Shown here: piece after piece, positions 1,167 to 15,118 of the stretch
Position numbering within the stretch: the stretch's first letter is position 1
How the letters are laid out: each line of letters opens with the position of its first letter
Notes under the pieces: model-generated
Told to the model about the DNA's origin: nothing
What the model saw: only the letters and a program-made list of their open reading frames with translations
Database searches by the model: none
UHGV virus genome: UHGV-2163177
Reading direction: 5' to 3' (one strand)
Length of the DNA: 15,118 nucleotides
From: a virus
Made by a program: the position numbers and the translations under genes

Positions 1167-1211
1167 TGCCCACTCCATGTGATATCGATTGCAAAGAAAG
1201 TAAATCTGTAA

Positions 1212-1227
1212 CTGTATTTATATACAG
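1212..1227. promoter_or_regulatory. LexA operator (SOS box) CTGTATTTATATACAG in the dinD promoter
   Basis: Perfect CTGT-N8-ACAG palindrome about 45 bp upstream of the dinD start. Confidence 0.7.
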
Positions 1228-1318
1228 TTGTGAGTATCTCACGTTCTCAGTGTGCTGGGCAAAAAAACATCGCAAAATCTGGAGCAGGCACGCAAAACAG
1301 AATTGAAGTTGCGGGGAA

Positions 1319-1353
1319 GAAAAATGCCGCTCTGTTTGAGTGGGCGGCATTTG
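1319..1353 (-). terminator. Rho-independent terminator, probably the native yicC terminator now displaced to the far side of the element
   Basis: Stem aaatgccgc/gcggcattt (1322-1330 / 1345-1353) with 14-nt loop, followed on the minus strand by a U-run (plus-strand A-run 1319-1324). Confidence 0.55.
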
Positions 1354-1385
1354 TGAAGGCTGAAAAGTAAGAATTAGTGTTACGA

Positions 1386-1406
1386 GTTACTCAATATTCT
1401 GAATCT
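1386..1406. repeat. attL core: 21-bp direct repeat gttactcaatattctgaatct
   Basis: Identical 21-mer at 14954..14974; identity breaks on both sides. The core is followed by its own inverted copy (ttactcaatat 1387-1397 / atattgagtaa 1409-1419). Confidence 0.75.
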
Positions 1407-1528
1407 ATATATTGAGTAAATGCATCAATAGCCTATGGTTTATGGATTTTTAGTAATGATATTTTTCTTTGGGTTCACCCATGTGTACACCTAAATCATG
1501 AGTGCTATTGAGACCAATTAACACCTCA

Positions 1529-3517
1529 TTAGTTGTTAACTTGTACTTGTTCACAAGAAATATATCCCTGTCGTTTGTGTCTTCTCGCATGAGGAAATGC
1601 CAGTCTTATTTTTCCGGATCTTACTAATGGAACGAGCTGTTTTTCTCGTAGGTTCTGTGGTGTTCGGGCCATTAACTTTGCAATAACACTAAGCGGCATA
1701 TAATGGCCTGAGCAAAGCTTAAGTATGATTTCGTCCATGGTTTCGTTGGAAAGTCGTTTCTTTTCTCTGGCTAATGCAGATATGTCTTCTAACCGTTGCC
1801 TTAAGGTTGGTGAAAGGCACTCAAGGTTATCCACATAAGGAAAAGGTAGTTTCTCGGTTATAAAACGACCTAAAGCATCTCGTTCTTTTTCGTTATCCGT
1901 GATCAATTCTTCGTTATCCGTGATCAAATTATCGCTATCCGTGATGATTTGAGCTTCGTTTGCGAATGAGTTGTCTGTTGATAACGGATTTACACCAAAA
2001 ACTTCCTCTGGAGATGGAAGATCCTGCCCCGGTAATGTATATGATTTATTCCTCTTCTCACCATGAGGGACTAAGAATCCGCCGCTTACAAGGCGGGGTA
2101 AGGCTAAAGTTACCTCACGAGAGTGAAGGCTAGTTAGTTGACAAGCCCGTTCATGGTCAATCCACTTTTCTACGGCTGCAGTTATAACAATACTGCGCTC
2201 AAGCTCACTGAGATGGTCTACTTTGTCGCCAAATTTTGTATGGAGAAGATTGGCAATTTCTTCTGATACGAGGTTGCCAATAGATAGCTCCAAAAGTGTT
2301 TGTTCTGGTTCTGTTTTTTCATATAGCCTTGGCATACGCCAGTTAGCCCATTTCCAGCCACTAAATATTTTAGGGATCCCTGAGCCTGATCGTTCACCAG
2401 CACCAATAATTAAAAACATTTGATGCATCAGTCGGTTTCGACAATCGCTTTCATATCCTTTGATTGCTTGTTCTGGTGGCACGCGCATCAAACCTGGATT
2501 ACGGAAGCCAAATAGATCTGGTCGTTTCACAACCATGATGGAGATTCGTCCAGTATAATCGGCATGAACTAAGGTATTTACCAGCGCTTCACGCAATGCT
2601 GTGTGTATCTGAGTATCGTCCTGTCGGATACCTTCTTTAAGCTCAAAAGGGACTTTTAAGTCAGCAATTAGTTTTCGATAGGTTCGTCTGTAAAAGTCAA
2701 ACACGTTACCTGACCAAGTCCCATCGGGACATAGTCTATCTACCCATCTTCTTTCAGTTCTTGCTTCAGGGCGTTCTTGGTAATCCACAAAATAATTTGG
2801 GGCTACATCTTGTATCGCTTCCCATGTTCCAAACATGAGAATGCCAGCTAAGGTCATGCCTTCCAAACCTGTTTGCCGGTCTTTTCTATATCCCCCAATA
2901 CTTCGTAGGAAAGCAAAGTTATCTAGTTCGAGAGCTGGATGTGTCGGGTTTGAAGCAGATAGTAGATTTCTGTAAGCCAACAAGCTTTCTAGGTTAATAT
3001 CGTTCATGTCGAAGTTTTGTACGATACGGTTGTCGCGGCTTTCTTCAACCTGTTCGGCCATCATGCGACGAACTTGTTCTTCTGAACAACGATGATCACC
3101 GTCGTGCATACGAAACCATGTTTCTGACATGGGTTGATTATTCAAATAAACAGGTTTCTGTTCTCGTCGTGCGATTGGTATTTCAATGACAAGAATATCC
3201 TTTCCCTGTAAGGATACTGTTTGGACAGAGTTATTGGTAAGAAGATTAACGTTAACTTTTTTCTTGTTGCTCACGAGGTCGAAAAGCTGCTTTTTAACGG
3301 TATTTATATCTGAAATACCCGCAACGGAAAATTCCCCTTTTTTCTCTCTAATACCTAAAACCACATACCCACCACGGCAGTTTGCCATAGCACTATAGGT
3401 TGGCCAGAAATCATCAGGTAATTTACCTTGTCCGTCTTTCCCTTGAGCTAGCTTGAACTCTAGCTCTGCGGATTCCGAAAGTGCACGCAAGTCGCTAAGG
3501 TCAGATATTAGGAACAC
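1529..3517 (-). CDS. AlbA_2 (Schlafen-like) N-terminal domain plus HATPase_c_4-like ATPase domain protein, 662 aa; often mis-annotated as RecG-like helicase or transcriptional regulator
   Basis: Long ORF with GTG start 4 nt after a GGAGGA SD. N-terminal ESAELEFK motif is typical of AlbA_2; central ALREALVNTLVHADY motif is typical of HATPase_c_4. Domains read by eye. Confidence 0.75.
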   Translation of the reverse strand: MFLISDLSDLRALSESAELEFKLAQGKDGQGKLPDDFWPTYSAMANCRGGYVVLGIREKKGEFSVAGISDINTVKKQLFDLVSNKKKVNVNLLTNNSVQTVSLQGKDILVIEIPIARREQKPVYLNNQPMSETWFRMHDGDHRCSEEQVRRMMAEQVEESRDNRIVQNFDMNDINLESLLAYRNLLSASNPTHPALELDNFAFLRSIGGYRKDRQTGLEGMTLAGILMFGTWEAIQDVAPNYFVDYQERPEARTERRWVDRLCPDGTWSGNVFDFYRRTYRKLIADLKVPFELKEGIRQDDTQIHTALREALVNTLVHADYTGRISIMVVKRPDLFGFRNPGLMRVPPEQAIKGYESDCRNRLMHQMFLIIGAGERSGSGIPKIFSGWKWANWRMPRLYEKTEPEQTLLELSIGNLVSEEIANLLHTKFGDKVDHLSELERSIVITAAVEKWIDHERACQLTSLHSREVTLALPRLVSGGFLVPHGEKRNKSYTLPGQDLPSPEEVFGVNPLSTDNSFANEAQIITDSDNLITDNEELITDNEKERDALGRFITEKLPFPYVDNLECLSPTLRQRLEDISALAREKKRLSNETMDEIILKLCSGHYMPLSVIAKLMARTPQNLREKQLVPLVRSGKIRLAFPHARRHKRQGYISCEQVQVNN
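1890..1952. repeat. Three tandem copies of a 21-bp unit (tcgttatccgtgatcaa...) inside the 1529..3517 CDS, in frame
   Basis: Units at 1890-1910, 1911-1931, 1932-1952; the first 16 nt are identical in units 1 and 2. Encodes heptad-like ITDSDNL/ITDNEEL/ITDNEKE. Confidence 0.85.
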
Positions 3518-3801
3518 AGTTCCTCCATATGAAACTTATGGGTATAAATTTTTCACATTTTACTCTAGTTTAAGTGGTAGGAAAGAACATGAAAGGTTAT
3601 TAAAACGTTGATAACACTGATACCTGTACGTTTGAACAGGGTATTGAATAGTCAGTATGTTGCTCTGCTATGAAATGCTTTATTCGTTATGATCCTTATT
3701 TATCCACAATGATTTTCTAGTTGTCCGTGATGAAGGTTAGATAGGAATCACAGATAATTGGTAGGAGGGGCTATTATATCGGCATCATGCCCACCAGCTA
3801 C

Positions 3802-3824
3802 AAAAAAGCCTTGCCCGTAGGCTT
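3802..3824 (-). terminator. Rho-independent terminator downstream of the small ORF 3864..4043
   Basis: Stem aagcct/aggctt with 7-nt loop (3806-3824), followed on the minus strand by a U-run (plus-strand A-run 3802-3807). Confidence 0.5.
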
Positions 3825-3863
3825 AATGTTTGGCTTGAATATCGGCTTACTGTAACGCCTCGC

Positions 3864-4043
3864 TCACCGTCGCGGCCTGTCCGGTTTCTTCCACTGATAC
3901 GGCCTCACATCATCCTGCTGGTGGCGTTCCTGTTGCAGCACAACGGAAACAGGCGCTGAACACCTGTTAATTTTTCTTGCAGGTTGTTTGATTCCGGCAA
4001 TGCTGCGGATCATCTCCAGCAAATCGGCTTCGGTGATGGTCAT
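3864..4043 (-). CDS. Hypothetical small protein, 59 aa (MTITEADLLEMIRSIAGIKQ...), below the ORF-track length cutoff
   Basis: ATG at 4043 preceded by AAGGTG SD with 6-nt spacing; terminator hairpin about 40 nt past the stop; translated by hand. Confidence 0.45.
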   Translation of the reverse strand: MTITEADLLEMIRSIAGIKQPARKINRCSAPVSVVLQQERHQQDDVRPYQWKKPDRPRR

Positions 4044-4075
4044 GATTTACACCTTAGGAAATCTTAGGTGGCTGG

Positions 4076-4341
4076 TTGACACTTTCCAGCTTAAGACCTT
4101 AACAAACCTTAACATCGCAGGTTGACACACTTGACACTTTTTCGCGAAAAACCTTAACAAAACTTAACCACCCCTGGCATTTCTAAGCATGGCAACTTGA
4201 CACTTTTCGCGATTTTTTCGGTTTTTTGACGTGGTGAATATGGTACAAGGCCAGTAATGGCGCGGCTTCTAGCGAGGTTGACACTTTTTCGCGTTCAGAG
4301 TGTAAAGTGTCAACCTGGCAAGCTGCTCAACTTGACACTTT
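4076..4341. repeat. Iteron array: five direct copies plus one truncated and one inverted copy of TTGACAC(TTT), several extended to TTGACACTTTTTCGCG, interleaved with ACCTTAACA-type repeats
   Basis: Full copies start at 4076, 4131, 4197, 4278, 4332; truncated ttgacac at 4122; inverted copy at 4305-4315; ccttaaca repeats at 4095-4118 and 4149-4170. Lies between the small ORF and the HTH gene. Confidence 0.8.
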
Positions 4342-4347
4342 TTGATG

Positions 4348-4875
4348 TCATTGATGGTCTGATTTTTCCCATTCAGCCAGGGCGTTTAGCCCGGCTTCAC
4401 TCCATGATTCCAGTTCATCGGGATAATCACCTGCAACATAGCAGAGTTCGCAACGCAGCATACGAATTGCCAGCCTGGCATTACCTCGCAAATTGTATTT
4501 TTCAAAGTAATGCTGCCCTTCATCATCCTCAAGGCAGATAGCACCATCATCAAGAAAGTGCACTTCCCAGCCTAATTCCCCGGCTGCATACAGCACACGC
4601 TGCTGTATGTCATCGTCCGTTACTGGCGAAGGAATTTTACCGTCTCTGGCCTTAACTGCTTTCCAGAACTCGCCCCACGTCATTTCCAGCGTTCTTTCTG
4701 GCCACATTTCAGAAACGGTGTCTTTCCCTTGTGCCGGTGGGCTGTTCCGCTGCTCTGTCGCCTCCACATCAATTTTTTTGCCAGACATGATCACTTCGCC
4801 TTTCTCGATCCAGTCGTAAACTGTCTGGCGGCTTACGCCTTTGTATTTGGCGTATTCGGCTTTACTCATCAACAT
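4348..4875 (-). CDS. Putative HTH DNA-binding protein, 175 aa (N-terminal KYKGVSRQTVYDWIEKGEV helix-turn-helix)
   Basis: ORF 4348..4884; start placed at the ATG with GAGGTGA SD 5 nt upstream (the track start is a GTG three codons earlier). Confidence 0.65.
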   Translation of the reverse strand: MLMSKAEYAKYKGVSRQTVYDWIEKGEVIMSGKKIDVEATEQRNSPPAQGKDTVSEMWPERTLEMTWGEFWKAVKARDGKIPSPVTDDDIQQRVLYAAGELGWEVHFLDDGAICLEDDEGQHYFEKYNLRGNARLAIRMLRCELCYVAGDYPDELESWSEAGLNALAEWEKSDHQ

Positions 4876-4974
4876 GTAGCTCACCTCATGCGTATACGAT
4901 AAAAAATAATTTCATGCGGAAAGGGAATGCGTTGTGGGTATGGAGGAAAGGGGCAATAACCGCCCCTTACTGAT

Positions 4975-5247
4975 TCAGTTGCGCCAGGATGGCTGGCTAA
5001 GCGTGGTTTTCATTACATCATTGACGACCTGTTTTACGATTTCTGTGTTGGCAGTCGTGCTTTCAACATCAACAAAGCCATAATCGCCAATTTCCACCGT
5101 CAGGGATTCCAGTTTCTTCCCTAGAGCATCAGGCAACTCTCCACTGAACCGGTGCTGAAGATTTTCCACCAGCAACGCCCTGAATGCCTCGCTGTTCTCT
5201 TTTTTCTGCCATAGCTGGCGTTTATCCACTCTGATATTTAATTTCAC
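4975..5247 (-). CDS. Hypothetical protein, 90 aa
   Basis: GTG start overlapping the stop of the upstream gene (GTGA), preceded by AGAGGTGA SD. Confidence 0.5.
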   Translation of the reverse strand: MKLNIRVDKRQLWQKKENSEAFRALLVENLQHRFSGELPDALGKKLESLTVEIGDYGFVDVESTTANTEIVKQVVNDVMKTTLSQPSWRN

Positions 5248-5411
5248 AGTCTCACCTCTTTAAGTGCCTTATCCATCAGTTGCCGGGCGATAACATGAAT
5301 CGACGGTGCCACACCAAGCACAGATTTCTGACGCTCTTCGTCCTGGATGCGTTGCAGGGCTTCGATCTGCCTCCGGGAAAGTAAAACTGGCTTTACTCCG
5401 TGACCTTTCAT
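5244..5411 (-). CDS. Hypothetical small protein, 55 aa (MKGHGVKPVLLSRRQIEALQR...), possible small regulator
   Basis: Internal ATG of ORF 5244..5480 with GGGAG SD 7 nt upstream; the longer N-terminal extension has no SD. Confidence 0.45.
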   Translation of the reverse strand: MKGHGVKPVLLSRRQIEALQRIQDEERQKSVLGVAPSIHVIARQLMDKALKEVRL

Positions 5412-5521
5412 GATTTTTCTCCCGAATAATAACAACCACAACAATTGCACAAAATGAAATGATAGCAATAAATGTTGCAATTAATGAAACACAATAAGGC
5501 CGGGAAAAATCCCGGCCTCCG

Positions 5522-5809
5522 TCACTGACTGCAATTTTTCGATCCAGGGTATTTCCTGAATGCCTTACCATTGGGCTGATGTAATCCCATTCCGGCATGT
5601 GCCCGGCTGATGGTTTCGCGCATCTCCCCGAAATTATCCTGCCTTGCTGGTGGGCGTGCTGCCTTGTGGATACATTCCGCGCGACGTTTTGCCGCCTGTT
5701 CCCGTGCCTTGTCATCATTCGCCAGCATAATGACCTCAGCCCACCGCGCCGCCGCTCTCCGGTACAGACCACGCGCTTCCAGTGCTTCCGCTTTGCTGTC
5801 GTGAATCAT
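5522..5809 (-). CDS. PerC-family transcriptional regulator-like protein, 95 aa
   Basis: N-terminal AEALEARGLYRRAAARWAEV resembles the PerC/Pch family signature (from memory); start overlaps the stop of the upstream ProQ/FinO-like gene (ATGA). Confidence 0.55.
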   Translation of the reverse strand: MIHDSKAEALEARGLYRRAAARWAEVIMLANDDKAREQAAKRRAECIHKAARPPARQDNFGEMRETISRAHAGMGLHQPNGKAFRKYPGSKNCSQ

Positions 5810-6336
5810 GCGCTTGTTTTCTCCTTTGCTGCCCGGCGCTGACGTTTGCGCTTCTCATTCAGCGCCACCAGCCGCGTTTCTGCGTCCTGTTGTTCCTGTG
5901 GTGTCACCTCGCCGCACGGCTGGCCTTTCAGGTCGTAACGCGCCCCACCAGCAACCAGGGCGCGGTAATAGCGCGGAGACTGCGCATAAGATGCCAGCGT
6001 CGCACGTAATGCCCCTGGCCCAAATGCCAGCCCCCTGACGGCGAGATCCTGCATCAGGTCGTCGAATATCCCCACCTTAAGCGGCTTCGGTGCTTCCCGG
6101 CTGAATAAGTCAGGCCACAACTCAGTGAGGCGGTTAACGCGCCTGCGGTTTTTGCGCTGGCGTTTGGTCATATGCCGCCACGGTGTCGCCCCTGTGGGCT
6201 TCTGCTGCGCGTTCTGATTACCGGGCATCACTTTATATGCCGATGTGGTTTTATCCTGCTGTTGCGTCTCCTGTACCATTTTTGTGGCATACCGTAATTT
6301 CTGTTGATGGTCAGCTTTTCCATGTGTACTTTTCAT
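5806..6336 (-). CDS. ProQ/FinO-family RNA-binding protein, up to 176 aa (start uncertain)
   Basis: LTELWPDLF...KPLKVGIFDDL...LRATLASYAQSPRYYRAL...RYDLKGQPCGE matches the conserved ProQ/FinO N-terminal domain pattern. None of the candidate ATGs has a strong SD. Confidence 0.75.
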   Translation of the reverse strand: MKSTHGKADHQQKLRYATKMVQETQQQDKTTSAYKVMPGNQNAQQKPTGATPWRHMTKRQRKNRRRVNRLTELWPDLFSREAPKPLKVGIFDDLMQDLAVRGLAFGPGALRATLASYAQSPRYYRALVAGGARYDLKGQPCGEVTPQEQQDAETRLVALNEKRKRQRRAAKEKTSA

Positions 6337-6415
6337 CGATATTATCCGTATTATCGTCGTTCCTTTTGATGGCTTATTTCTATAGAAATTTCTTTATTGC
6401 TTATTGCCCAGATAA

Positions 6416-6742
6416 TTAACTGACTATTAGTGCTTTAATACTCAGGTACGCAGAAAGAATAACACCAATAAAAGAAGGGTACAGCAGAATCCCAAACAAA
6501 AACTTCATGTACTTATGTTTTCCTGTCACTTCGTTAATAACAGATATTATACTCAACATACATAATGCAATACTTATAGTTGCAATAAATGCAATAGTAA
6601 GCAAGATGAAATATCTTACACCTGTTTGAGAAGATAAATTTGCAATTATACCTATCATAACGAGACTCTGTATAATCCCGAAAGACAAAGCACCAGAAGA
6701 CTTTTCCACTATTTCACTAAATTTCTTCACAAAGTAAATCAT
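6416..6742 (-). CDS. Small hydrophobic membrane protein, 108 aa, about 3 predicted TM segments, AT-rich
   Basis: ATG at 6742 with AAGGTGA SD 6 nt upstream; hydrophobic stretches throughout; visibly lower GC than flanking genes. Confidence 0.6.
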   Translation of the reverse strand: MIYFVKKFSEIVEKSSGALSFGIIQSLVMIGIIANLSSQTGVRYFILLTIAFIATISIALCMLSIISVINEVTGKHKYMKFLFGILLYPSFIGVILSAYLSIKALIVS

Positions 6743-6819
6743 ATATATCACCTTTATATAACGCTATGCTAAGGTTTATTTATACGATATCCCCAAATGG
6801 TATTCCATCACCGTACGGA

Positions 6820-7038
6820 TCACTCTGCTGGCCTTTTTTGCCGCCCGGCCGCACCGTTCGCGCACTGATTACGCTGTCTGCGATAACCAGACCAGCCACG
6901 TTTCGCCGTTCCGTCATCTGCCAGGCTGCGCGGAAGGGGAACTGCCATACTCGCCATTGCCATTGGTGTTCCCTTGCTGGTGGTTTTTGAGTGCAGATCA
7001 GCCACCTGCCGCCCGTAAGCGGATATTTGTACCGTCAT
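6820..7038 (-). CDS. Hypothetical protein, 72 aa
   Basis: ATG with GGAGAG SD 9 nt upstream; same orientation as neighbours. Confidence 0.35.
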   Translation of the reverse strand: MTVQISAYGRQVADLHSKTTSKGTPMAMASMAVPLPRSLADDGTAKRGWSGYRRQRNQCANGAAGRQKRPAE

Positions 7039-7235
7039 GCTGTTTGCTCTCCGGTTTTAACGTTGATGATTGTCACCTGTTCAGCTTCGGCAATCTCCCG
7101 TTCTGTCAGCGTGGCAAAGTTTGCCGCTGCCGTTGTCATGAATGCGCTTATCAGTTCGGGATGTACTTTCGCGTATCCTTCCCCGGCGTTGCGGTCGATA
7201 ATTTTTATCGCCCCCCTCAGCCTGTGTTCTGTCAA
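7035..7235 (-). CDS. Hypothetical protein, 66 aa, start uncertain (TTG, no SD)
   Basis: ORF only; weak translation signals. Kept because the alternative plus-strand ORFs look less protein-like. Confidence 0.25.
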   Translation of the reverse strand: MTEHRLRGAIKIIDRNAGEGYAKVHPELISAFMTTAAANFATLTEREIAEAEQVTIINVKTGEQTA

Positions 7236-7324
7236 ATCAAGGGCGTGAGATTGTGTTTTTTGTGTGTTTCGTTGTCACAGCCTTTACCTCACAGCAATAA
7301 AATAAAATTTTTGCATTTTAACCC

Positions 7325-7552
7325 TTCACCTGTTCACCTTTTTCCGTTTCTCCTTTTAATTCATTGTGTTAAGGGGTGAACAGTTTCACAAAAACTATTC
7401 ACCAACTGTTCACCACTGTTCACCCTTAAAGCTCAACAAATAATCAAAAAGGTGAACAGTGAATAGTTTGATGAACAGTTCATGAATAACTGTTCACCCT
7501 ATAACCAACTGATATAGAACACATTTATTACAGGGTGAACAGTGATGAACAG
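7325..7552. repeat. P4-type 'type I' iteron array: about ten copies of TGTTCACC or close variants in both orientations; putative replication origin (ori/crr-like)
   Basis: Perfect octamers at 7331, 7407, 7417, 7491 (direct) and 7375, 7451, 7535 (inverse), plus variants tattcacc, gtgaatag, atgaacag. Immediately downstream of the helicase gene. Confidence 0.8.
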
Positions 7553-7565
7553 TTATTCCATAAGT

Positions 7566-9380
7566 TTAATTTTTGCCATCGTCATTTGTGACCGATGCAC
7601 ATGAGGGCATCCAGTCTTCTGAATCCTCTGTCAGTATCACGTTTGAACGCAAGCCATGCTTCGTTTTCCGTTTCATATACTCCCTGCCGTATTCCGCCAT
7701 TGCCCCTGGCATATCCTTACCGAAGCGTGTCAGTGTTACGGGCTTACCGAATCCGTGTGCCCTCATATACGCCAGATAGGCGTGATAGAGATACCTGCGC
7801 GGGCTGAACGGAATAATTTCAGCATTACCCACTAACAGGCCATCGCACATTACCGACGACATGAGATAGCCGCAGAAGTCCACCAGCGAATCGCCCTCGC
7901 GTTTTATCACCAAGGCTTCTTCTGATTTCTGCTGCTCATATAGCAGGCGTTTAGCTTCGTCCTGGTCAGAAAAGCGTGTAAGCAGGTGGCGAATCACTAC
8001 CGCCAGCTCTCCTTCTATTTTTTCAGCCAGCATAGGGTCACGTTCGTTCTCCGGTACAACTTCCGAAAAATTGAATATTACCCGACGACGTGATATCCCA
8101 CCGCTGCGGTCACTGAATGACATGGCGTTATTGTTCACCGCCAGCACGACCGCCTGAATGCGTGTTGAGTAGGGGGCTTTATGTTTCGGGTCGATTGCCA
8201 CCTTATCACCGCCTGTAATGGCCTTAATCCCTGCACCATCACCAGCGTAACGGGTCATATCCGGCATGATAATCAGCGAAAAGCCAACCACTAACGCACG
8301 TTCCCTGGCATCTTCCAGCGCCTTCATGCTTGCCGATACCGTGTTGGCCTTACCCGCCAGCATAGTGCAAATCTCCGCCATTACGCTTTTACCGCTTCCA
8401 CCCGGCCCCGTTACCTCAAGAAATAACTGCCAGTCGTACCGATTCGCCAGCACCATGAATAACGCCGCCAGTACGCGATCTGCCTTGCGGTCATTCTCAG
8501 CCACCGAACGGCGCAACCACTTCCAGAAATTCGGCGCATGTGTTGCCAGCGTTTCCCCCTCTGCTGGTGGGCTGAAAGGTAATTCACTGGCAATTAACAA
8601 CCAGTCGTTTTTGTTATGCTCCCGAAAATTACCAGTTCTGGTATCAAATACCCCGTTACTGAATCCAATCAGGTTACGGGCTGTATTCCCCATTACGGGC
8701 AAACTTAACTTCATGGTATCGACCGCCGATTTGATGGCGTTCTGCGAATAGCTGATTTCCGCATCAATAAAAATCTGCGCCATAGCCCGCTGTAACTCTT
8801 TATCCTGTACCGGCTCCCATACAACACCGTTGTAGTGGTGAACGGTGTCAGAATCCGCATTGATTGCCAGTTCACCGCCATAATGTGCCAGGAGAACTTC
8901 GCCGCGCTGGCTTGCTCCCATCTGGTTAAGTGCCAGTGGTGTCGCGCTGTCTTCTGTTTTTTTCTTTGCCGGAAACCGGATAATCAGTCCGTCATCAATG
9001 TTTTTACGCTCACGGGCAAGGTATTCACGCCAGTTCTCACACTTCTGGCTGTGCATGCCATCAGGGTAATAATTCGCATTCTGTATACTTGCCGCCGCCA
9101 GCTTCTGACCAATTGCCTTAACCATTACAGGATCTAACTGTCCGGCTCTGAATATGCGCGCGGATGTGCGCCCATCAGGCACTATTTGCAGATTTCCGAT
9201 CTCTTTCAGTTGTTCATCAGCCAGCACAACAGGTGGCTCATTATCTCCAGCCATACGCGCATCGTGTTCCTGCCATTGTTTCGCGTGTGCCCAGGCATCA
9301 CTACCCGCGAAAATAATTACCTCTGTGTCTTTGTGTTTTATTCCGCGTGGCTGTTTTTTTACGTTCGGTGCCAGTTTCAT
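7566..9380 (-). CDS. P4-family primase/helicase-like protein, 604 aa (P4 alpha-like helicase and origin-binding region; the N-terminal primase domain appears to be missing)
   Basis: Walker A TGPGGSGKS; IKAITGGDKVAIDPKHKAPY...RRRVIFNFS matches the P4-family primase C-terminal (SF3 helicase) pattern; GGGGGG SD; start overlaps upstream stop. Confidence 0.85.
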   Translation of the reverse strand: MKLAPNVKKQPRGIKHKDTEVIIFAGSDAWAHAKQWQEHDARMAGDNEPPVVLADEQLKEIGNLQIVPDGRTSARIFRAGQLDPVMVKAIGQKLAAASIQNANYYPDGMHSQKCENWREYLARERKNIDDGLIIRFPAKKKTEDSATPLALNQMGASQRGEVLLAHYGGELAINADSDTVHHYNGVVWEPVQDKELQRAMAQIFIDAEISYSQNAIKSAVDTMKLSLPVMGNTARNLIGFSNGVFDTRTGNFREHNKNDWLLIASELPFSPPAEGETLATHAPNFWKWLRRSVAENDRKADRVLAALFMVLANRYDWQLFLEVTGPGGSGKSVMAEICTMLAGKANTVSASMKALEDARERALVVGFSLIIMPDMTRYAGDGAGIKAITGGDKVAIDPKHKAPYSTRIQAVVLAVNNNAMSFSDRSGGISRRRVIFNFSEVVPENERDPMLAEKIEGELAVVIRHLLTRFSDQDEAKRLLYEQQKSEEALVIKREGDSLVDFCGYLMSSVMCDGLLVGNAEIIPFSPRRYLYHAYLAYMRAHGFGKPVTLTRFGKDMPGAMAEYGREYMKRKTKHGLRSNVILTEDSEDWMPSCASVTNDDGKN

Positions 9381-9619
9381 TTTTTCCCCCCTGCAACCAG
9401 CATTTCACGGATTTTGCGGATATAGCTTGCTGCACGTTTTTGATTTACGGCTTTATAATGGTCCACCAGCGTAAAATCACGGCGGTAGGTGATATTGCCT
9501 GGCGTAACGTGACGAATAACCACTCGTCCCCCACGTCTGGTGTCGCGGTAAATATCTCCGAGTCTGATTTCAGGCCGAGAGAGACCGCTGGCAGTAAAGC
9601 CAGAATTTTTCTTTTTCAT
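9377..9619 (-). CDS. Hypothetical protein, 80 aa
   Basis: ORF in the operon; its stop overlaps the helicase start codon. Confidence 0.45.
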   Translation of the reverse strand: MKKKNSGFTASGLSRPEIRLGDIYRDTRRGGRVVIRHVTPGNITYRRDFTLVDHYKAVNQKRAASYIRKIREMLVAGGKK

Positions 9620-9623
9620 GGTT

Positions 9624-9824
9624 TTATTTTCCTGTCAGCAGTTCCGGTTTTATTTCCGCACGAATACAGAGTTCAGAAAAAAATTCAGGAGAACCAACAA
9701 TCTCATTACTTTTCAGTCGGCATTGTGATTTCACTTTCCCTTTATCCAGGTAAACCAGTACGCGTCCGGTGAAATCATCTGGCACATTAAGCACTACGGG
9801 TACATGCGCTTCATGATTATGCAT
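9624..9824 (-). CDS. Hypothetical protein, 66 aa
   Basis: ATG with GGAGG SD; overlaps the end of the upstream gene by 8 nt. Confidence 0.5.
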   Translation of the reverse strand: MHNHEAHVPVVLNVPDDFTGRVLVYLDKGKVKSQCRLKSNEIVGSPEFFSELCIRAEIKPELLTGK

Positions 9825-10050
9825 GGCTTACATCCTCCGTGAATTTTCTTCTGTAACGCGCCTCTGCCACATATTCCGCATAGTCCGACGCAATACTAAG
9901 AATCATTTCACCCTCTGACTTGTAGCCACTGGTATTGATAAGAAAATATGCAGCTTTCATCATGTCAGCAACGCTCAACAATGCGCCCGCTGCATCTTCC
10001 GGTGCGCCATCAAATTCCCGTTTCAGGGAATTAAAACGATCATCACGCAT
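9817..10050 (-). CDS. Hypothetical protein, 77 aa
   Basis: Internal ATG at 10050 with GGGGGG SD; the longer form in the ORF track lacks an SD. Confidence 0.5.
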   Translation of the reverse strand: MRDDRFNSLKREFDGAPEDAAGALLSVADMMKAAYFLINTSGYKSEGEMILSIASDYAEYVAEARYRRKFTEDVSHA

Positions 10051-10052
10051 GT

Positions 10053-10409
10053 TTACCCCCCCTGAATGACCTGATAACCGCAACTGGTCAGCAATTCGAT
10101 AAATTCCGGCAGTGTGCCGAAACAGCAATCATCACGCAGACGTTCGCGGGATACTTCAACGCCGTTTTCGTAGTGACTCACCATGCGTCCGGTAAAATGC
10201 AGATCATCATCGTGATGGCACGTTAACGGCTTAATCAGTCGCGCACGTTCTGCCAGTTCCAGCAATGCTTCAACGCTTCCGGCAATTGCACCATCCGGCA
10301 GGTGATAATTACTTACCACGCGTCCATTCTCCACGTTGACCAGTAGCTGCCCGGAAAATATCTCGTCAAACTGAATGCTGTTAAGGTCAGAAATTGACAG
10401 GTTATGCAT
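10053..10409 (-). CDS. Hypothetical protein, 118 aa
   Basis: ATG at 10409 with AGGAGG SD at 6-nt spacing. Confidence 0.55.
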   Translation of the reverse strand: MHNLSISDLNSIQFDEIFSGQLLVNVENGRVVSNYHLPDGAIAGSVEALLELAERARLIKPLTCHHDDDLHFTGRMVSHYENGVEVSRERLRDDCCFGTLPEFIELLTSCGYQVIQGG

Positions 10410-10626
10410 GGTGCACCTCCTGCACATCAGCCATGATAATTTTTCCGGCCTTATCCAGTGCCTGATCGGCTTTTAGCTGCACAAATGCTAAATAATGGGA
10501 GATGCATTCTGATTCTCTGGCTGCGTGTTTATGCGCCACACCAGCGATAGCAGAAATCTCAATAAGTGAATCCATCAGCGTTTTGATAGCGTCTACCGCT
10601 GCATCAGGCCATGTTGCATTACACAT
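10402..10626 (-). CDS. Hypothetical protein, 74 aa
   Basis: ATG at 10626 with AGGAGG SD at 6-nt spacing; overlaps the downstream gene start. Confidence 0.5.
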   Translation of the reverse strand: MCNATWPDAAVDAIKTLMDSLIEISAIAGVAHKHAARESECISHYLAFVQLKADQALDKAGKIIMADVQEVHHA

Positions 10627-10822
10627 GTTCCACCTCCTGGCGAATGCGGGCAGCGAATACCATCACGCAGCCATCAGGAGATTGCTGGCGTGCTTCCTGT
10701 TCGCTGGTGGCCTCGATGTGAATTACACGCGGTTGTGCTGTGCTCAGGGCGATAAAACGCCAGATATATTTATTCAGGTTGTGCGAGTCCCGCCCTTGCG
10801 GGTGTGTGGTATGATTTCTCAT
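10619..10822 (-). CDS. Hypothetical protein, 67 aa; first gene of the leftward operon
   Basis: C-terminal part of track ORF 10619..11470; ATG at 10822 with GAGG SD. The rest of the long ORF runs across the divergent promoter and the opposite-strand RHH gene. Confidence 0.45.
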   Translation of the reverse strand: MRNHTTHPQGRDSHNLNKYIWRFIALSTAQPRVIHIEATSEQEARQQSPDGCVMVFAARIRQEVEHV

Positions 10823-10903
10823 AGCTACCTCGATACTTCTGCTATCGTTGGTGGTTAGACGCCCTGCATGTGTTGCGAGCACTGCGGGGCGTTGCTCTTT
10901 CAG

Positions 10904-10949
10904 GTGTATTTCACCTTTGCTTTTTAATTTACTCACTGGTGAAATACAC
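10904..10949. promoter_or_regulatory. Putative operator: perfect 12-bp inverted repeat gtgtatttcacc / ggtgaaatacac with 22-bp spacer, in the divergent promoter region
   Basis: Arms at 10904-10915 and 10938-10949; a leftward -35-like TTGAAG overlaps the right arm; a rightward -10-like TATACT lies near 10981. Confidence 0.5.
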
Positions 10950-11015
10950 TTCAAGCCTTTTTTTATCATTTTTTTTGCGTATACTGACATACACCAATTT
11001 TTAGGAGATCCAGAA

Positions 11016-11195
11016 ATGGCAACTGGTGCAAAGAACGCAAAATCACAAATGACAACTGTCAGAATCCCACATGAAGTAATGGATGATATTGAGCAACTTA
11101 AAGAACCTGGCGAAAGTACCGCTGGTTTTTTAGTTACTGCCGCAAAAGGCGAGATCAAACGCCGCCAGCGGCGCAAGGCCAAAGAACAGGAGTAG
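11016..11195 (+). CDS. Small ribbon-helix-helix-like DNA-binding protein, 59 aa (candidate element repressor)
   Basis: ATG with AGGAG SD; TTVRIPHEVMDDIEQL resembles an RHH beta-strand/helix start; basic C-terminal tail; only supported plus-strand gene in the element. Confidence 0.5.
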   Translation: MATGAKNAKSQMTTVRIPHEVMDDIEQLKEPGESTAGFLVTAAKGEIKRRQRRKAKEQE

Positions 11196-11462
11196 TTGAT
11201 TAGCGCCGGGCGCCCAGAAAAAATCGTATCAGTCGCGCCACCAGCAAAATTTTTTGCTTTCCGGACGGCGTGGCCAACGGCATTTTGCAGCAAAATATTC
11301 TGCATTTCTGGCGTACTGTGGCGACGGTGATCAGCGCCTTCACATTGAACGAACTTGTCGCTAAAATTCACCCATATAGCAAACATCGCGGTGCTGTAGG
11401 TAATTCGTTCACAAAGGCGCTCCGGCAACGGGGCGCTTTCTCTTTTTGTAACGGTCAGAGCG

Positions 11463-12263
11463 TTACACATGGCTGTTTTCCTCCATGCGACGGGCTAACC
11501 AACGCTGCGAAAGGCGAATTAATTCCGCTTTCCGCTGGTGGTAGTCCTGGCCTAACTCAATCAGCGTGATATTGCTCTGCTCAAGGTAAGAAAGGTGCTC
11601 AAGCTGCAACGTGCTCATGTGGTCGCGTGGTTCGCCTGTAATGCCGTTCGCCTGTGCCCACTGTTTTGCAGTCATGCCACCCAGCACGATACGCGCCAGC
11701 ATATTGGCTTCCGTGGTGTAGTGGTGCTGGAACGTGTTTTTACCCAGTTCAGCCCGGTACGCCTCCAGCGCGGCACACATCGGCTTAAAGTAGCTGGCAA
11801 CGGTGATACGGGCTTTCAGTTCCCGGCGTAACGCTGCGGAACGCACTGGCGCTACCTTGTGTAGCTCCTCCTCGCATTTGATGAAGTACTGACGAACGGC
11901 ACGGCCCTGTTCGGTGCGTTCGACCATCGCCAGTTCTTTTGCCATGTTCACGGTGATGATGTACTCAAGAGCTGTTTGCTGGCGAGATTTTGCGCTCACC
12001 GGATCGGGTCGGCTCAAATATTCAACAACCTCATAATCCACGCCTTCCGTGAAGCCGTATTCTTCAATGCGCCCCTTGATCCACGAACGGAAAACGCGCC
12101 CTACACCTAACGCCTTATGCAACGCTCTGGCACTAACAATATTGGTTTCACGCCCGCCAATAACGCCGGAAATAACCGGGATAATTTCACCAAAATTTTG
12201 CAGATTCTGGTTTTCAGGCCGAACGAAGCCCTGCCCCTGTACGGGCGTTTTTGGAAATTTCAT
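11463..12263 (-). CDS. Phage antirepressor, AntA/AntB N-terminal domain family, 266 aa
   Basis: NIVSARALHKALGVGRVFRSWIKGRIEEYGFTEGVDY matches the AntA/AntB pattern; AGGAG SD 7 nt upstream of the ATG. Confidence 0.75.
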   Translation of the reverse strand: MKFPKTPVQGQGFVRPENQNLQNFGEIIPVISGVIGGRETNIVSARALHKALGVGRVFRSWIKGRIEEYGFTEGVDYEVVEYLSRPDPVSAKSRQQTALEYIITVNMAKELAMVERTEQGRAVRQYFIKCEEELHKVAPVRSAALRRELKARITVASYFKPMCAALEAYRAELGKNTFQHHYTTEANMLARIVLGGMTAKQWAQANGITGEPRDHMSTLQLEHLSYLEQSNITLIELGQDYHQRKAELIRLSQRWLARRMEENSHV

Positions 12264-12342
12264 AAAAAACTCCTGCTATCGAATCTGGTTAATTGCTGTT
12301 TGATGGTGGATAGCTGGGGCGCCTGGTCCCGTAGCTGTTTTA

Positions 12343-12561
12343 TCAGGCTGATGTGTTTCGGCGTTCTTCCAGCCAGCGATTAATCTCTACCGCATCGAAT
12401 GCAGTGCTTTTCTCACCCAGTTTGATGGGCTTAGGCATCTTCCCGCTACGTACCCAACGATCGAGCGTTGATAAGCTGGTACCCAGCAATTCAGCCAGGC
12501 GATAGCGGCGGATATAGCCAGTTGCAGGGATTGCGGTTTGAAGTATTGGTTGGTTTTTCAT
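12343..12561 (-). CDS. AlpA-family transcriptional regulator/excisionase-like protein, 72 aa (start may be 12570)
   Basis: YIRRYRLAELLGTSLSTLDRWVRSGKMPKPIKLGEKSTAFDAVEINRWL is the typical AlpA/Vis HTH pattern; the N-terminal extension in the ORF track is unlikely. Confidence 0.7.
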   Translation of the reverse strand: MKNQPILQTAIPATGYIRRYRLAELLGTSLSTLDRWVRSGKMPKPIKLGEKSTAFDAVEINRWLEERRNTSA

Positions 12562-12673
12562 ATGCCCCATTACCTTTGTTGTTGGTTTGTGATTTGTAAT
12601 AGGGGCATTAAATAACAAATGAAATGATGTGTGTGTGAGTTTTAGAAAAAACACTGTGACTTTTCTTATTTCA

Positions 12674-13456
12674 CTATCTAAAACGCTCTCGCCAGCTTTT
12701 CCAAGTGTTCTTATCTGGTTGTGGGATTACAATGCCTTTTTGAGCACCTATTTGTGCAATTTTTTTATTTAACTTGTTAGGCGGCAAAGATATTATCTCA
12801 TTGTCTGTTAACCCGGCAATTCTTAATAATCCATATATCATTTTAAATTGATGTATTGTTAATCTTGGTAACTTGTGATTTTCTTTTTTTATAGTGTTGT
12901 TTATGGAGTAAATTGGAAATCCATTTGTTATTGATTTATAAAGGTTGTCAATGTGCTCTCTGGTTATTAATAATGAATCAGGTGTAATCTTAATGTTGCC
13001 GCTTGTTTTTGCATGGCATGAAAAAATAAATGTGGGATTCGCAGTGCGACGTGAAAGCGGTATGGATGTATTCATAGAGATAGTTTTGTTTCTTACTATA
13101 GTCTCTTGAATATCAAAAACTCCAGAAACCTTTGCCTCAAAAATAACACCATTTTCTTTTATTTCATCACTATATTCATGAATAATTATGCCAAGAGAGG
13201 AAATTTCTTTTTTGATGAGAAAAGAAATAAAATCAATATAGTCTTCATCCTTTGGCCATGTAAAATCACGATAACCAAAATACCCCTCACAGTAAGCATT
13301 TTTTATTTTTGTGGCAAAATTAATTCTGTTAATATCCTGCCAATGCCATAAATCATCTATTTCACATTCTAAAATTTGAGCTGCTCTATCTAAAGAGCAG
13401 AATTCTAATGGAGGTAATTGTTTTTTTTGCCATATTGTTTCATTAATATTTGTCAT
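12674..13456 (-). CDS. Hypothetical protein, 260 aa, strongly AT-rich orphan between int and the alpA-like gene
   Basis: Long uninterrupted ORF with A/T-biased codons (Ile/Asn/Lys-rich); no family recognised by eye; weak SD. Confidence 0.6.
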   Translation of the reverse strand: MTNINETIWQKKQLPPLEFCSLDRAAQILECEIDDLWHWQDINRINFATKIKNAYCEGYFGYRDFTWPKDEDYIDFISFLIKKEISSLGIIIHEYSDEIKENGVIFEAKVSGVFDIQETIVRNKTISMNTSIPLSRRTANPTFIFSCHAKTSGNIKITPDSLLITREHIDNLYKSITNGFPIYSINNTIKKENHKLPRLTIHQFKMIYGLLRIAGLTDNEIISLPPNKLNKKIAQIGAQKGIVIPQPDKNTWKSWRERFR

Positions 13457-13512
13457 GATTGCACTACCGTTATGAAAAAATATATTCGTTAATGAATTAG
13501 CCTTAATGTCTA

Positions 13513-14766
13513 TTATTTATTAGATTGCGTGATGTCAGAACATATCATGTTTTCTAAATTCACCAGCAAATCAGTCCATTGTGCTAGTGCCGCTTTGCGC
13601 TCATCAAAATATTGATGGCGGTTATAAATGCCCTCTACGCCTTTTATGCGGTGGTTAAGGCATCGTTCAGCAACGATCGGGTCAACTCCCAATGCTGCTA
13701 AATGTGTTCGTGCTGTTCGCCGGAAGTCGTGAATTGTAAAGTTGGGGACGTTCGGCATTTCTGCTCTGACTTTTGCCAATGCAACAGGAAGGGTGCTTTC
13801 CTGGATGTGAGGGATCATTCTGTGCTGCATTTTTCTGGCAGGTAATACCCATGCGCTATTGCATGAAAATGTATGCAATTCTCGCAACCATTCTATAGCC
13901 GCTGGTGGCAATGGTATGTCGATAGCATCACCATTTTTAGTTCGTTGTTCTGGTAGATGCCAAATCGCGCCATCTAAGTCGAATTCATCCCACTTGGCGG
14001 CGCATAATTCCATTTTTCTGACACACAACGCCAGGAGCAACTTAAAGGTTAATTCGTTCTGGCGGCTGAATCCTTTGGCTTTACGCATTGCCTGAAAAAA
14101 TTGGATTAATTCGTCCCGGTTCAGCCAACGATCACGAGATAATTCTTTCCCACCAGCATCTGAAACTTCGAAAGCTGAGCAGGGGTTAACTTCCAAAGCA
14201 AGGCGTTTAATACCGTAGTCAAATATGCGACGTGTCCAGCGAAGAACGTCAGTAGCAATTGTTGGAGCGCCTCTATCAACAATACTTTTAAGCATAGCAT
14301 CAATATGGCGTGGTTTTACATCTTCAACCTTCATGTGGCCTATGGCTGGATTTATGTCTTTATCAATGCGCCTACGGAGAATATCTGGGTGTTTCCACCG
14401 GGGAAGTATTTGCCGTTCAAAGTATTCGGCGGCAAGTTCAGAAACGTGCAGCGCGTTTTTTTCGGCTTCTATTTTTGCCAGTGCTTCGGCTTTACGCTGC
14501 TGTTTTTCTGCGGCTACGTCATATCCCAAAGCAACTCGTGCGGAAAGTTCTTTTGCCCGTTCCCTCGCTTTTGATAACGATAATTCAGAATATGAACCAA
14601 TAAGCATGGCACGAGATTTTCCTGCTAGTTTATATCGAAACCGCCAGGTAGGGGATCTATCCACCTCTCTATACCGGAGATATAGCCCACCACCATCAGC
14701 ACGACCTTCGAAATGTTCTCCGGCTTTTATCCATGCGCGGATCTGCATATCTGTGAGTTTTGGCAT
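13513..14766 (-). CDS. int: Tyrosine integrase, P4-type (IntA/IntS-like), 417 aa
   Basis: N-terminal arm-binding-type domain (GGGLYLRYREV...WRFRYK); C-terminal catalytic region with HDFRRTARTHL and conserved Tyr region; located just inside attR. Confidence 0.9.
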   Translation of the reverse strand: MPKLTDMQIRAWIKAGEHFEGRADGGGLYLRYREVDRSPTWRFRYKLAGKSRAMLIGSYSELSLSKARERAKELSARVALGYDVAAEKQQRKAEALAKIEAEKNALHVSELAAEYFERQILPRWKHPDILRRRIDKDINPAIGHMKVEDVKPRHIDAMLKSIVDRGAPTIATDVLRWTRRIFDYGIKRLALEVNPCSAFEVSDAGGKELSRDRWLNRDELIQFFQAMRKAKGFSRQNELTFKLLLALCVRKMELCAAKWDEFDLDGAIWHLPEQRTKNGDAIDIPLPPAAIEWLRELHTFSCNSAWVLPARKMQHRMIPHIQESTLPVALAKVRAEMPNVPNFTIHDFRRTARTHLAALGVDPIVAERCLNHRIKGVEGIYNRHQYFDERKAALAQWTDLLVNLENMICSDITQSNK

Positions 14767-14793
14767 TTTCGTGTATCCAGACGTTGAAAACTT

Positions 14794-14848
14794 GGTGTAC
14801 CCAAACGTTTGGACTTAAAGCGTGATGTGTACACCTTTGGGTACACTG
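14794..14848. promoter_or_regulatory. Cluster of short palindromes/repeats upstream of int (ccaaacgtttgg, gtgtacac, tttgggtacac); candidate Int arm-type or regulatory sites
   Basis: 12-bp palindrome at 14801-14812, 8-bp palindrome at 14828-14835. The 12-mer atgtgtacacct (14825-14836) recurs at 1481-1492 at the other end of the element. Confidence 0.4.
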
Positions 14849-14891
14849 TTATCATGCGCTTTAGTCGTTCCTTATGAGTGTTCATGATAAC

Positions 14892-14914
14892 AAAAAAGCC
14901 CGAAAAAATCGGGC
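14892..14914 (-). terminator. Rho-independent terminator carried by the element, now sitting just downstream of yicC
   Basis: Stem gcccga/tcgggc with 5-nt loop (14898-14914), followed on the minus strand by a 6-U run (plus-strand A-run 14892-14897). Confidence 0.6.
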
Positions 14915-14953
14915 CTTTAAGTGTTTGGGATTTTTGATGAAAGTCAATAAATC

Positions 14954-14974
14954 GTTACTCAATATTCTGAATCT
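14954..14974. repeat. attR core: 21-bp direct repeat gttactcaatattctgaatct overlapping the yicC stop codon
   Basis: Identical to 1386..1406; encodes the last yicC codons (...QIQNIE-stop) on the minus strand. Confidence 0.75.
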
Positions 14975-15118
14975 GCTCGCGCATCTGCTCAATCAACACT
15001 TTCAGCTCGATGGCGGAGTTTGTCACTTCGGCATTGATAGATTTCGACGCAAGAGTGTTCGACTCGCGGTTGAATTCCTGCATCATAAAGTCCAGACGAC
15101 GACCAACGGCTTCTTTTT
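14955..15118 (-). CDS. yicC: YicC-family protein (endoribonuclease YicC), C-terminal fragment; 5' part lies outside the window
   Basis: Minus-strand translation gives ...KEAVGRRLDFMMQEFNRESNTLASKSINAEVTNSAIELKVLIEQMREQIQNIE-stop, recognised as the YicC C-terminus. Confidence 0.85.
   Translation of the reverse strand, partial: KEAVGRRLDFMMQEFNRESNTLASKSINAEVTNSAIELKVLIEQMREQIQNIE

Follow-up and report, generated by a model that had tools for sequence, protein, structure and literature searches.

We analysed a window of 15,118 nucleotides (UHGV virus genome UHGV-2163177) that holds, at positions 1386 to 14974, a 13.6-kb integrative element. Very likely, we are dealing with a Gram-negative phage-inducible chromosomal island (PICI) of the EcCI type, whose own tyrosine integrase inserted it into the last codons of yicC. 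Both the kind and the site are known, and the element is an ordinary example that had been flagged before; its late module is uncharacterised. Positions 4152946-4166644 (13.7 kb) of Escherichia coli ABU 83972 are listed as 'PICI?' in Table S3 of Fillol-Salom et al. 2018 (PMC6092414). In the ABU 83972 record our element occupies 4152906-4166494 (window position x corresponds to record position 4167880 - x), and by these coordinates the 2018 entry is this same element.

In the published description of Gram-negative PICIs (PMC6092414), the genes are unidirectional, int is terminal, alpA is the activator, pri-rep is followed by an origin of replication (ori), and the attachment (att) sites are unused by prophages. 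All the PICI traits of that account are present here (unidirectional genes, alpA, pri with downstream ori, perC, and a prophage-free att site), and perC is named there as a frequent PICI accessory gene. Moreover, the element is 13.6 kb long with 21-bp repeats at yicC-dinD, which is within the PICI range of ~8-20 kb and at a PICI-specific att site. Its integrase is terminal and its genes run in one direction, AlpA is encoded, the ori lies just downstream of Pri-Rep, and no tail, lysis or complete head genes were found in it. The site is also a published one: EcCIRM13514 lies at yicC-dinD with att GAGCAGATTCAA, and CfCIP10159 at yicC-yicG (Fillol-Salom et al. 2018, Table S1, PMC6092414). A later study reported attB drift among yicC PICIs.

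At the protein level, identities to EcCIRM13514 were 85% for Int, 72% for AlpA, 88% for Pri, 55% for ProQ and 48% for PerC. Against EcCICFT073 they reached 94% for the Icd-like protein, 87% for a 66-aa protein, 61% for YlcI, 52% for PerC, 50.5% for Pri and 38% for the DUF4222 protein. A first-pass annotation of the window, made from the letters and a list of open reading frames (ORFs), had proposed either a degraded satellite or a less characterised type of P4-related element. By its gene order and orthologues, the element belongs instead in the described EcCI PICI family. The same annotation had singled out integration in a protein-coding 3' end rather than a tRNA; this holds, but it is not unusual, since yicC is a published PICI att site.

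The ends of the element are precise, and the insertion keeps the yicC reading frame. The features of the two ends are the following.

1386-1406, unstranded: att repeat, dinD-side copy, at the junction distal to int; exact 21-mer, single-copy in the empty site.
14954-14974, unstranded: att repeat, yicC-side copy with the last six yicC codons and stop; exact 21-mer.
14894-14918, minus strand: island-supplied intrinsic terminator directly after the yicC stop; 10-pair stem, then a T run (terminator scan).
1470-1490, unstranded: candidate arm-type integrase sites TGGGTTCACC and GTGTACAC, inside the left end (motif counts).
14794-14847, unstranded: candidate arm-type integrase sites, inside the right end (motif counts).

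The repeat is a perfect direct copy of GTTACTCAATATTCTGAATCT, with a start-to-start spacing of 13,568 bp; the chance expectation for an exact 21-bp pair in 15 kb is ~2.6e-5. Read on the minus strand, the right copy is ...ATT CAG AAT ATT GAG TAA, the last six yicC codons and the stop. RefSeq annotation positions the insert between dinD and yicC, and ARAGORN found no tRNA or tmRNA in the window. To mimic precise excision, we joined window positions 1186-1385 to 14954-15118. The resulting empty site (365 bp) is 100% identical in many genomes, such as E. coli C and ATCC 8739, and the yicC site is uninterrupted (a single match) in 4192 of 5426 complete genomes. The exact 21-mer was not found in K-12, although the exact empty site is present in other strains: MG1655 has one variant 21-mer, GTTATTCGATGTTCTGAATCT, with three synonymous differences, and the hairpin at 1319-1353 follows it directly. 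Thus, the repeats over the yicC stop, the absence of a tRNA at the junction and the single-copy empty site, all put forward in the first-pass annotation, were borne out, with a variant copy in K-12. In the window, the native yicC hairpin (1319-1353) has been displaced 13.6 kb to the dinD side, and the island terminator takes its place. The element is a clean example of an island that restores both the reading frame and the terminator at a protein-coding att site.

The motifs GTGTACAC and TGGGTWCACY are confined to ~160 bp inside both ends (2 copies vs 0.11 expected and 3 vs 0.09 expected, respectively), where they may serve as arm-type integrase sites. A similar motif, TTGGGTACACT, stands at both ends of a related island in CFSAN018748 (locus L004). 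To compare the att blocks themselves, we used EcCIRM13514 (locus L005, 2456-2467 and 14386-14397), the integrase of which is the 85% identical one. The block is AGATTCAGAATATTGAGTAAC here and GAGCAGATTCAA there, and AGATTCA (7 bp) is their sole overlap. Ours is 21 bp long and is shifted toward the 3' end relative to the EcCIRM13514 block; the last four yicC codons are replaced in EcCIRM13514 (NIE to NVE) but preserved in the island studied here. Seven base pairs fits the size of a tyrosine-recombinase overlap region, which is why we place the putative crossover segment at AGATTCA.

From int onward, all genes are on the minus strand except ylcI/ynfO, on the plus strand. Counted from the yicC side, the order is int, a gene X, alpA, antA, ylcI on the opposite strand, the icd-like gene, small ORFs, DUF4222, pri-rep, the ori iterons, the 66-aa protein, an ssb remnant, a 111-aa ORF, proQ, perC, the late zone and the cargo. 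The integrase gene starts 187 bp inside the right repeat, and it is joined by the AlpA-like, AntA-like and P4-family helicase genes and the iterons that had been noticed at first pass, now with Pfam matches for the genes and nine iteron copies counted. From int to perC, the features are as follows.

13513-14766, minus strand: tyrosine integrase, 417 aa, with Arm-DNA-bind_3, Phage_int_M and Phage_integrase domains (Pfam).
12674-13456, minus strand: 260-aa protein between int and alpA (gene X), ~31% GC, family-less.
12343-12561, minus strand: AlpA-family regulator/excisionase, 72 aa as annotated (Pfam Phage_AlpA 1.8e-8; similarity to EcCIRM13514 AlpA).
11463-12263, minus strand: AntA/Bro-type antirepressor-like protein (Pfam AntA 2.4e-23; PHROG anti-repressor).
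11016-11195, plus strand: YlcI/YnfO-family gene, the sole one on this strand (NCBIfam NF041551; equally placed gene in EcCICFT073).
10619-10822, minus strand: Icd-like protein, 67 aa (NCBIfam phage_ICD_like 3.8e-20; EcCICFT073 homologue).
9624-10626, minus strand: four small PICI-type ORFs at 9624-9824, 9817-10050, 10053-10409 and 10402-10626 (PHROGs 340, 2512 and 5146, function unassigned; partial EcCICFT073 orthologues).
9377-9619, minus strand: DUF4222 protein (Pfam).
7566-9380, minus strand: Pri-Rep, 604 aa, with D5_N/DUF5906/Pox_D5 helicase and ori-binding region (Pfam, phrog_864).
7331-7541, unstranded: replication origin iterons, seven copies of TGTTCACC in both orientations (motif count).
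7035-7235, minus strand: 66-aa conserved PICI protein (phrog_1231 1.6e-39; EcCICFT073 homologue).
6820-7038, minus strand: ssb remnant, N-terminal ~45 aa only (tblastn vs the EcCICFT073 and EcCIRM13514 SSB genes; partial in RefSeq).
6416-6751, minus strand: 111-aa hydrophobic ORF replacing the 3' part of ssb (ORF list; without family match, unannotated in RefSeq).
5806-6336, minus strand: ProQ/FinO-family protein (Pfam ProQ 1e-24).
5522-5809, minus strand: PerC-family regulator (Pfam PerC 5e-32).

Searches of Pfam, PHROG, PADLOC and NCBIfam gave no match for the 260-aa protein. The gene at the same int-X-alpA position in a Dickeya element encodes a protein with 28% identity to it (E 3e-22). 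The 260-aa protein has a helix-turn-helix (HTH)-like N-terminus and could be a regulator that moves together with this clade of integrases. The divergent region on both sides of ylcI/ynfO (10823-11462) could act as the regulatory switch of the island. It contains paired CAGCAAAATNTTNTGC repeats (11242-11313), and a spurious 283-aa ORF (10619-11470) overlaps the real icd-like gene. The truncated ssb with the hydrophobic 111-aa ORF after it (6416-7038 here) recurs in the island of APEC IMT5155 (locus L003). Outside the island, the flanking host gene dinD (342-1178, minus strand) has a BRO-N domain (Pfam 3.3e-11), of a broad domain family to which phage antirepressor-type proteins also belong.

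By analogy with EcCICFT073, the island would stay quiescent until a helper phage triggers alpA. AlpA would then switch on the operon. Excision at the 21-bp site would be carried out by Int, probably aided by AlpA as directionality factor, with the crossover probably in AGATTCA. The alpha-like helicase would replicate the circle from the iterons, and helper capsids would package the island DNA. The Schlafen/ATPase gene next to the att site may in turn protect the host against other phages.

At full length, the window is 99.6-99.9% identical to eight complete E. coli genomes, including ABU 83972 (NC_017631) and A41. Many genomes carry the island core (3787-12347) at different sites, with 92-97% identity. 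APEC IMT5155 carries the same core at tRNA-Thr with a different int, AlpA and cargo (DUF4747 plus a hypothetical protein). CFSAN018748 has the same int-X-alpA-antA module at yicC, with a RepA-type helicase replacing Pri and a DUF3800 cargo. In this form the int module occurs in 12 genomes, and related integrases (~75% nucleotide identity) in ~278 more. That the IMT5155 and CFSAN018748 relatives are modular supports a living family. The element is a further example of int, replicase and cargo modules swapped among related islands, with a Schlafen/ATPase gene in the cargo slot. The boundary and the cargo are marked by two features.

3806-3824, minus strand: terminator at the core/cargo boundary (terminator scan); similarity to related islands at other sites starts at 3781-3871.
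1529-3517, minus strand: cargo, a 662-aa protein with Schlafen/AlbA_2 and HATPase_c_4 (GHKL-type) domains (Pfam).

The att-proximal slot is a variable cargo position: the Schlafen segment is found only in the eight genomes that hold the whole island, and in relatives the slot holds other cargo, such as a 1655-aa NACHT protein in Dickeya-type relatives. The N-terminus of the cargo protein matches a 'RecG-related' nuclear magnetic resonance structure. In the 2018 table the element bears the remark 'terL?', which we reject for this large protein, as it has the Schlafen/AlbA_2 and HATPase_c_4 architecture and no terminase domain. PADLOC found no complete known defence system and gave weak matches to the Schlafen-bearing part of a pAgo model. 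Since the gene is in a variable slot and roles of Schlafen proteins in prokaryotic immunity have been published, it may be a phage-defence gene.

Several points weigh against a PICI assignment. The five PICI core components are an integrase, a regulator, a primase-replicase, capsid morphogenesis and a small terminase (Moura de Sousa et al. 2023), and the island has three of them (int, alpA and pri-rep). The other two SatelliteFinder components, capsid morphogenesis and small terminase, were not found, and Rpp and a lambda-type cosN are absent as well (no cosN match within 2 mismatches). Thus, the capsid-morphogenesis and/or small-terminase genes, or Rpp plus cos, by which PICIs hijack packaging are not represented. 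By tblastn, Pfam and PHROGs, no homologues of the capsid, decoration, small-terminase or Rpp genes of model islands were detected, and neither were genes of capsid-forming PICIs (own capsid, portal, head-tail connector, terminase). The claim of the first-pass annotation that recognisable capsid-hijacking or packaging genes and a full structural module are missing is therefore upheld, Pfam, PHROGs and tblastn also being empty for sid, psu and delta. In addition, the ssb gene is a remnant, there are no published reports of excision, replication or transfer of the element, it has no known helper phage, and its presence in only 8 of 5426 complete genomes could reflect vertical inheritance in one lineage.

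These points lead to the alternative that survives best, although we consider it unlikely: a decayed PICI, an immobile remnant that kept int, alpA and pri and lost its packaging module and ssb. The lack of a capsid, Rpp or small-terminase gene and of lambda or P2 cos would fit such decay, as would the truncated ssb, the full island in eight genomes only and the proQ gene that RefSeq marks as frameshifted in ABU 83972. Against this, the window has perfect att repeats, intact ORFs for int, alpA and pri, the iterons, and a proQ ORF without interruption. EcCIMP1, a functional PICI without identifiable capsid or terminase genes that is mobilised by phage Kapi1 and was classed by its authors as 'Type C', shows that islands of this kind can function (PMC11773190). 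Finally, the late module is kept in many genera, which argues for a functional alternative rather than debris.

This module, a conserved winged-helix gene and a repeat array at the position of the packaging module, had been missed at first pass. The late zone consists of the following features.

4975-5411, minus strand: two small ORFs of 55 aa (5244-5411) and 90 aa (4975-5247), without family match; they precede the winged-helix gene in other genera too.
4348-4884, minus strand: winged-helix protein, 178-aa ORF (175 aa as annotated, from 4875), at the rppA position (HTH_17).
4076-4343, unstranded: array of seven TTGACAC(TTT) sites (AAAGTGTCAAC on the minus strand) plus CCTTAAC repeats (motif counts).
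3864-4043, minus strand: 59-aa protein, the last conserved core gene; N-terminus weakly like the last EcCICFT073 gene (E 5e-4), kept in loci L003, L004 and L016.

Besides its HTH_17 match, the 178-aa protein has a weak N-terminal HTH match to phrog_57, a small-terminase PHROG, and a fold search returned only a generic Xis/MerR/TerS-DBD winged helix. Its family has 115 members in Enterobacterales, and no homologue was found in 50,697 phage records. All seven TTGACAC copies of the window lie at 4076-4338, in the 304-bp gap directly downstream of the gene. On the coding strand the extended site is AAAGTGTCAAC(C), which is kept in E. coli relatives. In Klebsiella and Enterobacter, where the protein is 54% and 35% identical, respectively, similar arrays of AAAGTGT[AC]AAC come after the homologous gene. 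In 15 more loci, which came from Escherichia ruysiae and nine or more other genera and had protein identities as low as 38%, motif density was 4.2 per kb over the 730 nt that follow the stop vs 0.057 per kb elsewhere. At least one site was present in 13 of these loci, and in the other two the array lies 1.6-1.9 kb downstream. The motif is absent from the Dickeya elements. The HTH residues are invariant across the family, which fits a conserved array site.

The gene-plus-array module thus occurs in E. coli and more than 10 other enterobacterial genera (loci L003, L004, L012-L016, L019, L021, L022, L025-L030), downstream of co-oriented PICI genes (pri, icd-like, DUF4222, proQ, and the 55-aa and 90-aa ORFs). 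In two Klebsiella pneumoniae loci, islands of this kind adjoin prophage tail and capsid (late) genes, with duplicated Dit_like/Pam3_gp18 genes in L012 and a truncated major-capsid gene in L013. This arrangement resembles the helper-embedded PICIs described by others.

Two other roles were considered for the winged-helix protein. Rpp (redirecting phage packaging) proteins, known from lambda-dependent PICIs, combine a TerS-like winged-HTH DNA-binding domain with a helical dimerisation domain for binding helper TerS. By sequence, the protein was rejected as a member of this family: BLASTP against RppA aligned only 35 aa of the HTH (E 0.048), and a profile of 41 family sequences missed RppC among PDB sequences, while RppA, as a positive control, finds RppC at 5e-31. 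The Rpp-cos module also differs in layout, with cos upstream of rpp and no repeated R sites; here the C-terminal domain is another one, and the array is downstream of the gene, multi-copy and without cosN. A role as excisionase was judged unlikely, given the 2.4 kb of cargo between array and att and the fact that AlpA fills that role. At the DNA level, the late zone matched nothing in phages at E 1e-5, and only ~30-bp matches appeared at E 10. One of these (4237-4268, 28/32 nt, E 7) falls ~440 bp from the left end of the Chi-like Salmonella phages 37 and YSD1, in an unannotated region. It was recorded because cos sites are located at genome ends, and it is probably due to chance.

We tentatively suggest, while thinking it on the whole improbable, that the late zone (the 55-aa and 90-aa ORFs, winged-helix protein, array and 59-aa gene) is a packaging-specificity or control module that replaces capsid, Rpp and cos and defines a widespread capsid-less PICI subfamily in Enterobacterales. 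Bound to the array, the protein would enlist or redirect a helper terminase, or else gate late functions and cargo expression, and the subfamily would include the Klebsiella islands beside prophage late genes. As a working hypothesis, the likeliest packaging director would be the winged-helix protein acting on the adjacent seven-site array. If the module does direct packaging, many 'Type C' PICIs would be complete satellites with an undescribed hijacking route. Satellite classifiers rate the winged-helix/array islands as incomplete, and this module is the feature most worth following up.

An atypical or degraded P4-like satellite, dependent on a P2-like helper, is a very unlikely identity for the island, yet its replication module is P4-like by sequence, as the first-pass annotation had recognised. 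Residues ~125-600 of Pri-Rep are 49.6% identical to residues 304-776 of P4 alpha (E 2e-149), the helicase/ori-binding region. The iteron TGTTCACC is identical to the annotated type-1 repeat of the P4 ori; it occurs nine times in the window vs 0.42 expected, and the seven copies at 7331-7541 are within 235 bp past the pri-rep stop. The integrase has the P4-type domain set with Arm-DNA-bind_3, and the regulator is of the AlpA/Vis class. The primase part of P4 alpha (residues 1-303), on the other hand, is unmatched by the 604-aa Pri-Rep; neither a Toprim nor a zinc-ribbon primase domain could be detected in this protein, in contrast to the 780-aa homologues of Klebsiella islands (L012). Because only the helicase/ori-binding part aligns and these domains are lacking, the primase activity of this 'DNA primase family' protein is doubtful.

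Further features of P4 are lacking. P4 Sid, Delta, Psu, Epsilon and the cI ORF had no tblastn match in the window (all E > 0.05; best E 0.05-0.4 for Sid and Delta, and zero matches for Psu), sid, psu and delta were also without Pfam or PHROG match, and the P2/P4 cos was absent from the window within 3 mismatches. Of the seven core components of P4, four (epsilon, psu, delta and sid) are missing, and the island is therefore not to be classed as a P4-like satellite. Its Int shares only 25% identity with P4 Int, and the gene organisation is unlike that of P4: gene order and most small genes match EcCI PICIs. The authors who described these PICIs already noted a distant P4 homology limited to Int, AlpA and Pri-Rep (PMC6092414). 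Moreover, P4 integrates at a tRNA and can persist as a plasmid, whereas the island is at yicC.

The choice of yicC also recalls the mobilisable genomic islands (MGIs) of Vibrio, since the MGIs mobilised by SXT/R391 have the yicC 3' end as their attachment site (PMC5704250). Together with the ProQ/FinO-family gene, this would fit an integrative mobilisable element moved by conjugation. We regard that as highly improbable: Pfam revealed no domain of a relaxase, a coupling protein or another transfer function in any of the ORFs (an oriT mimic was not searched for), and the gene content is common to phage-mobilised PICIs. Least probable is a defective prophage remnant, which the phage-type genes antA, icd-like, ylcI and int could suggest, but no ORF matches capsid, portal, tail, terminase, holin or lysin families (Pfam, PHROGs), size and organisation are kept among relatives, and the winged-helix gene of the late zone has no homologue in the phage records searched.

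As an EcCI-type PICI, the island can be set beside three described ones. EcCIMP1, which would score 'Type C' in SatelliteFinder and, like our island, has three of the five core components, shares the int-alpA-antA-pri-perC organisation. EcCIMP1 differs in its TOPRIM/DUF927 primase, its ejection-protein-like late genes and its att at tRNA-Thr; we rejected it as a close relative on account of the primase and late genes. EcCICFT073, which has been characterised experimentally (Fillol-Salom 2018, 2019), has major capsid and decoration genes, rppA (c1503, 144 aa) and lambda-like cosQ/cosN of its own, none of them present here; its Int is only 26% identical and its att is at ycfD-phoQ, but the gene order from alpA to perC is the same. 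EcCIRM13514 differs in its intact ssb, a late zone without a winged-helix homologue, its cargo and the shifted att block, and shares with our island the same chromosomal site and orientation, with ProQ, PerC, Icd-like and YlcI homologues in the same order.

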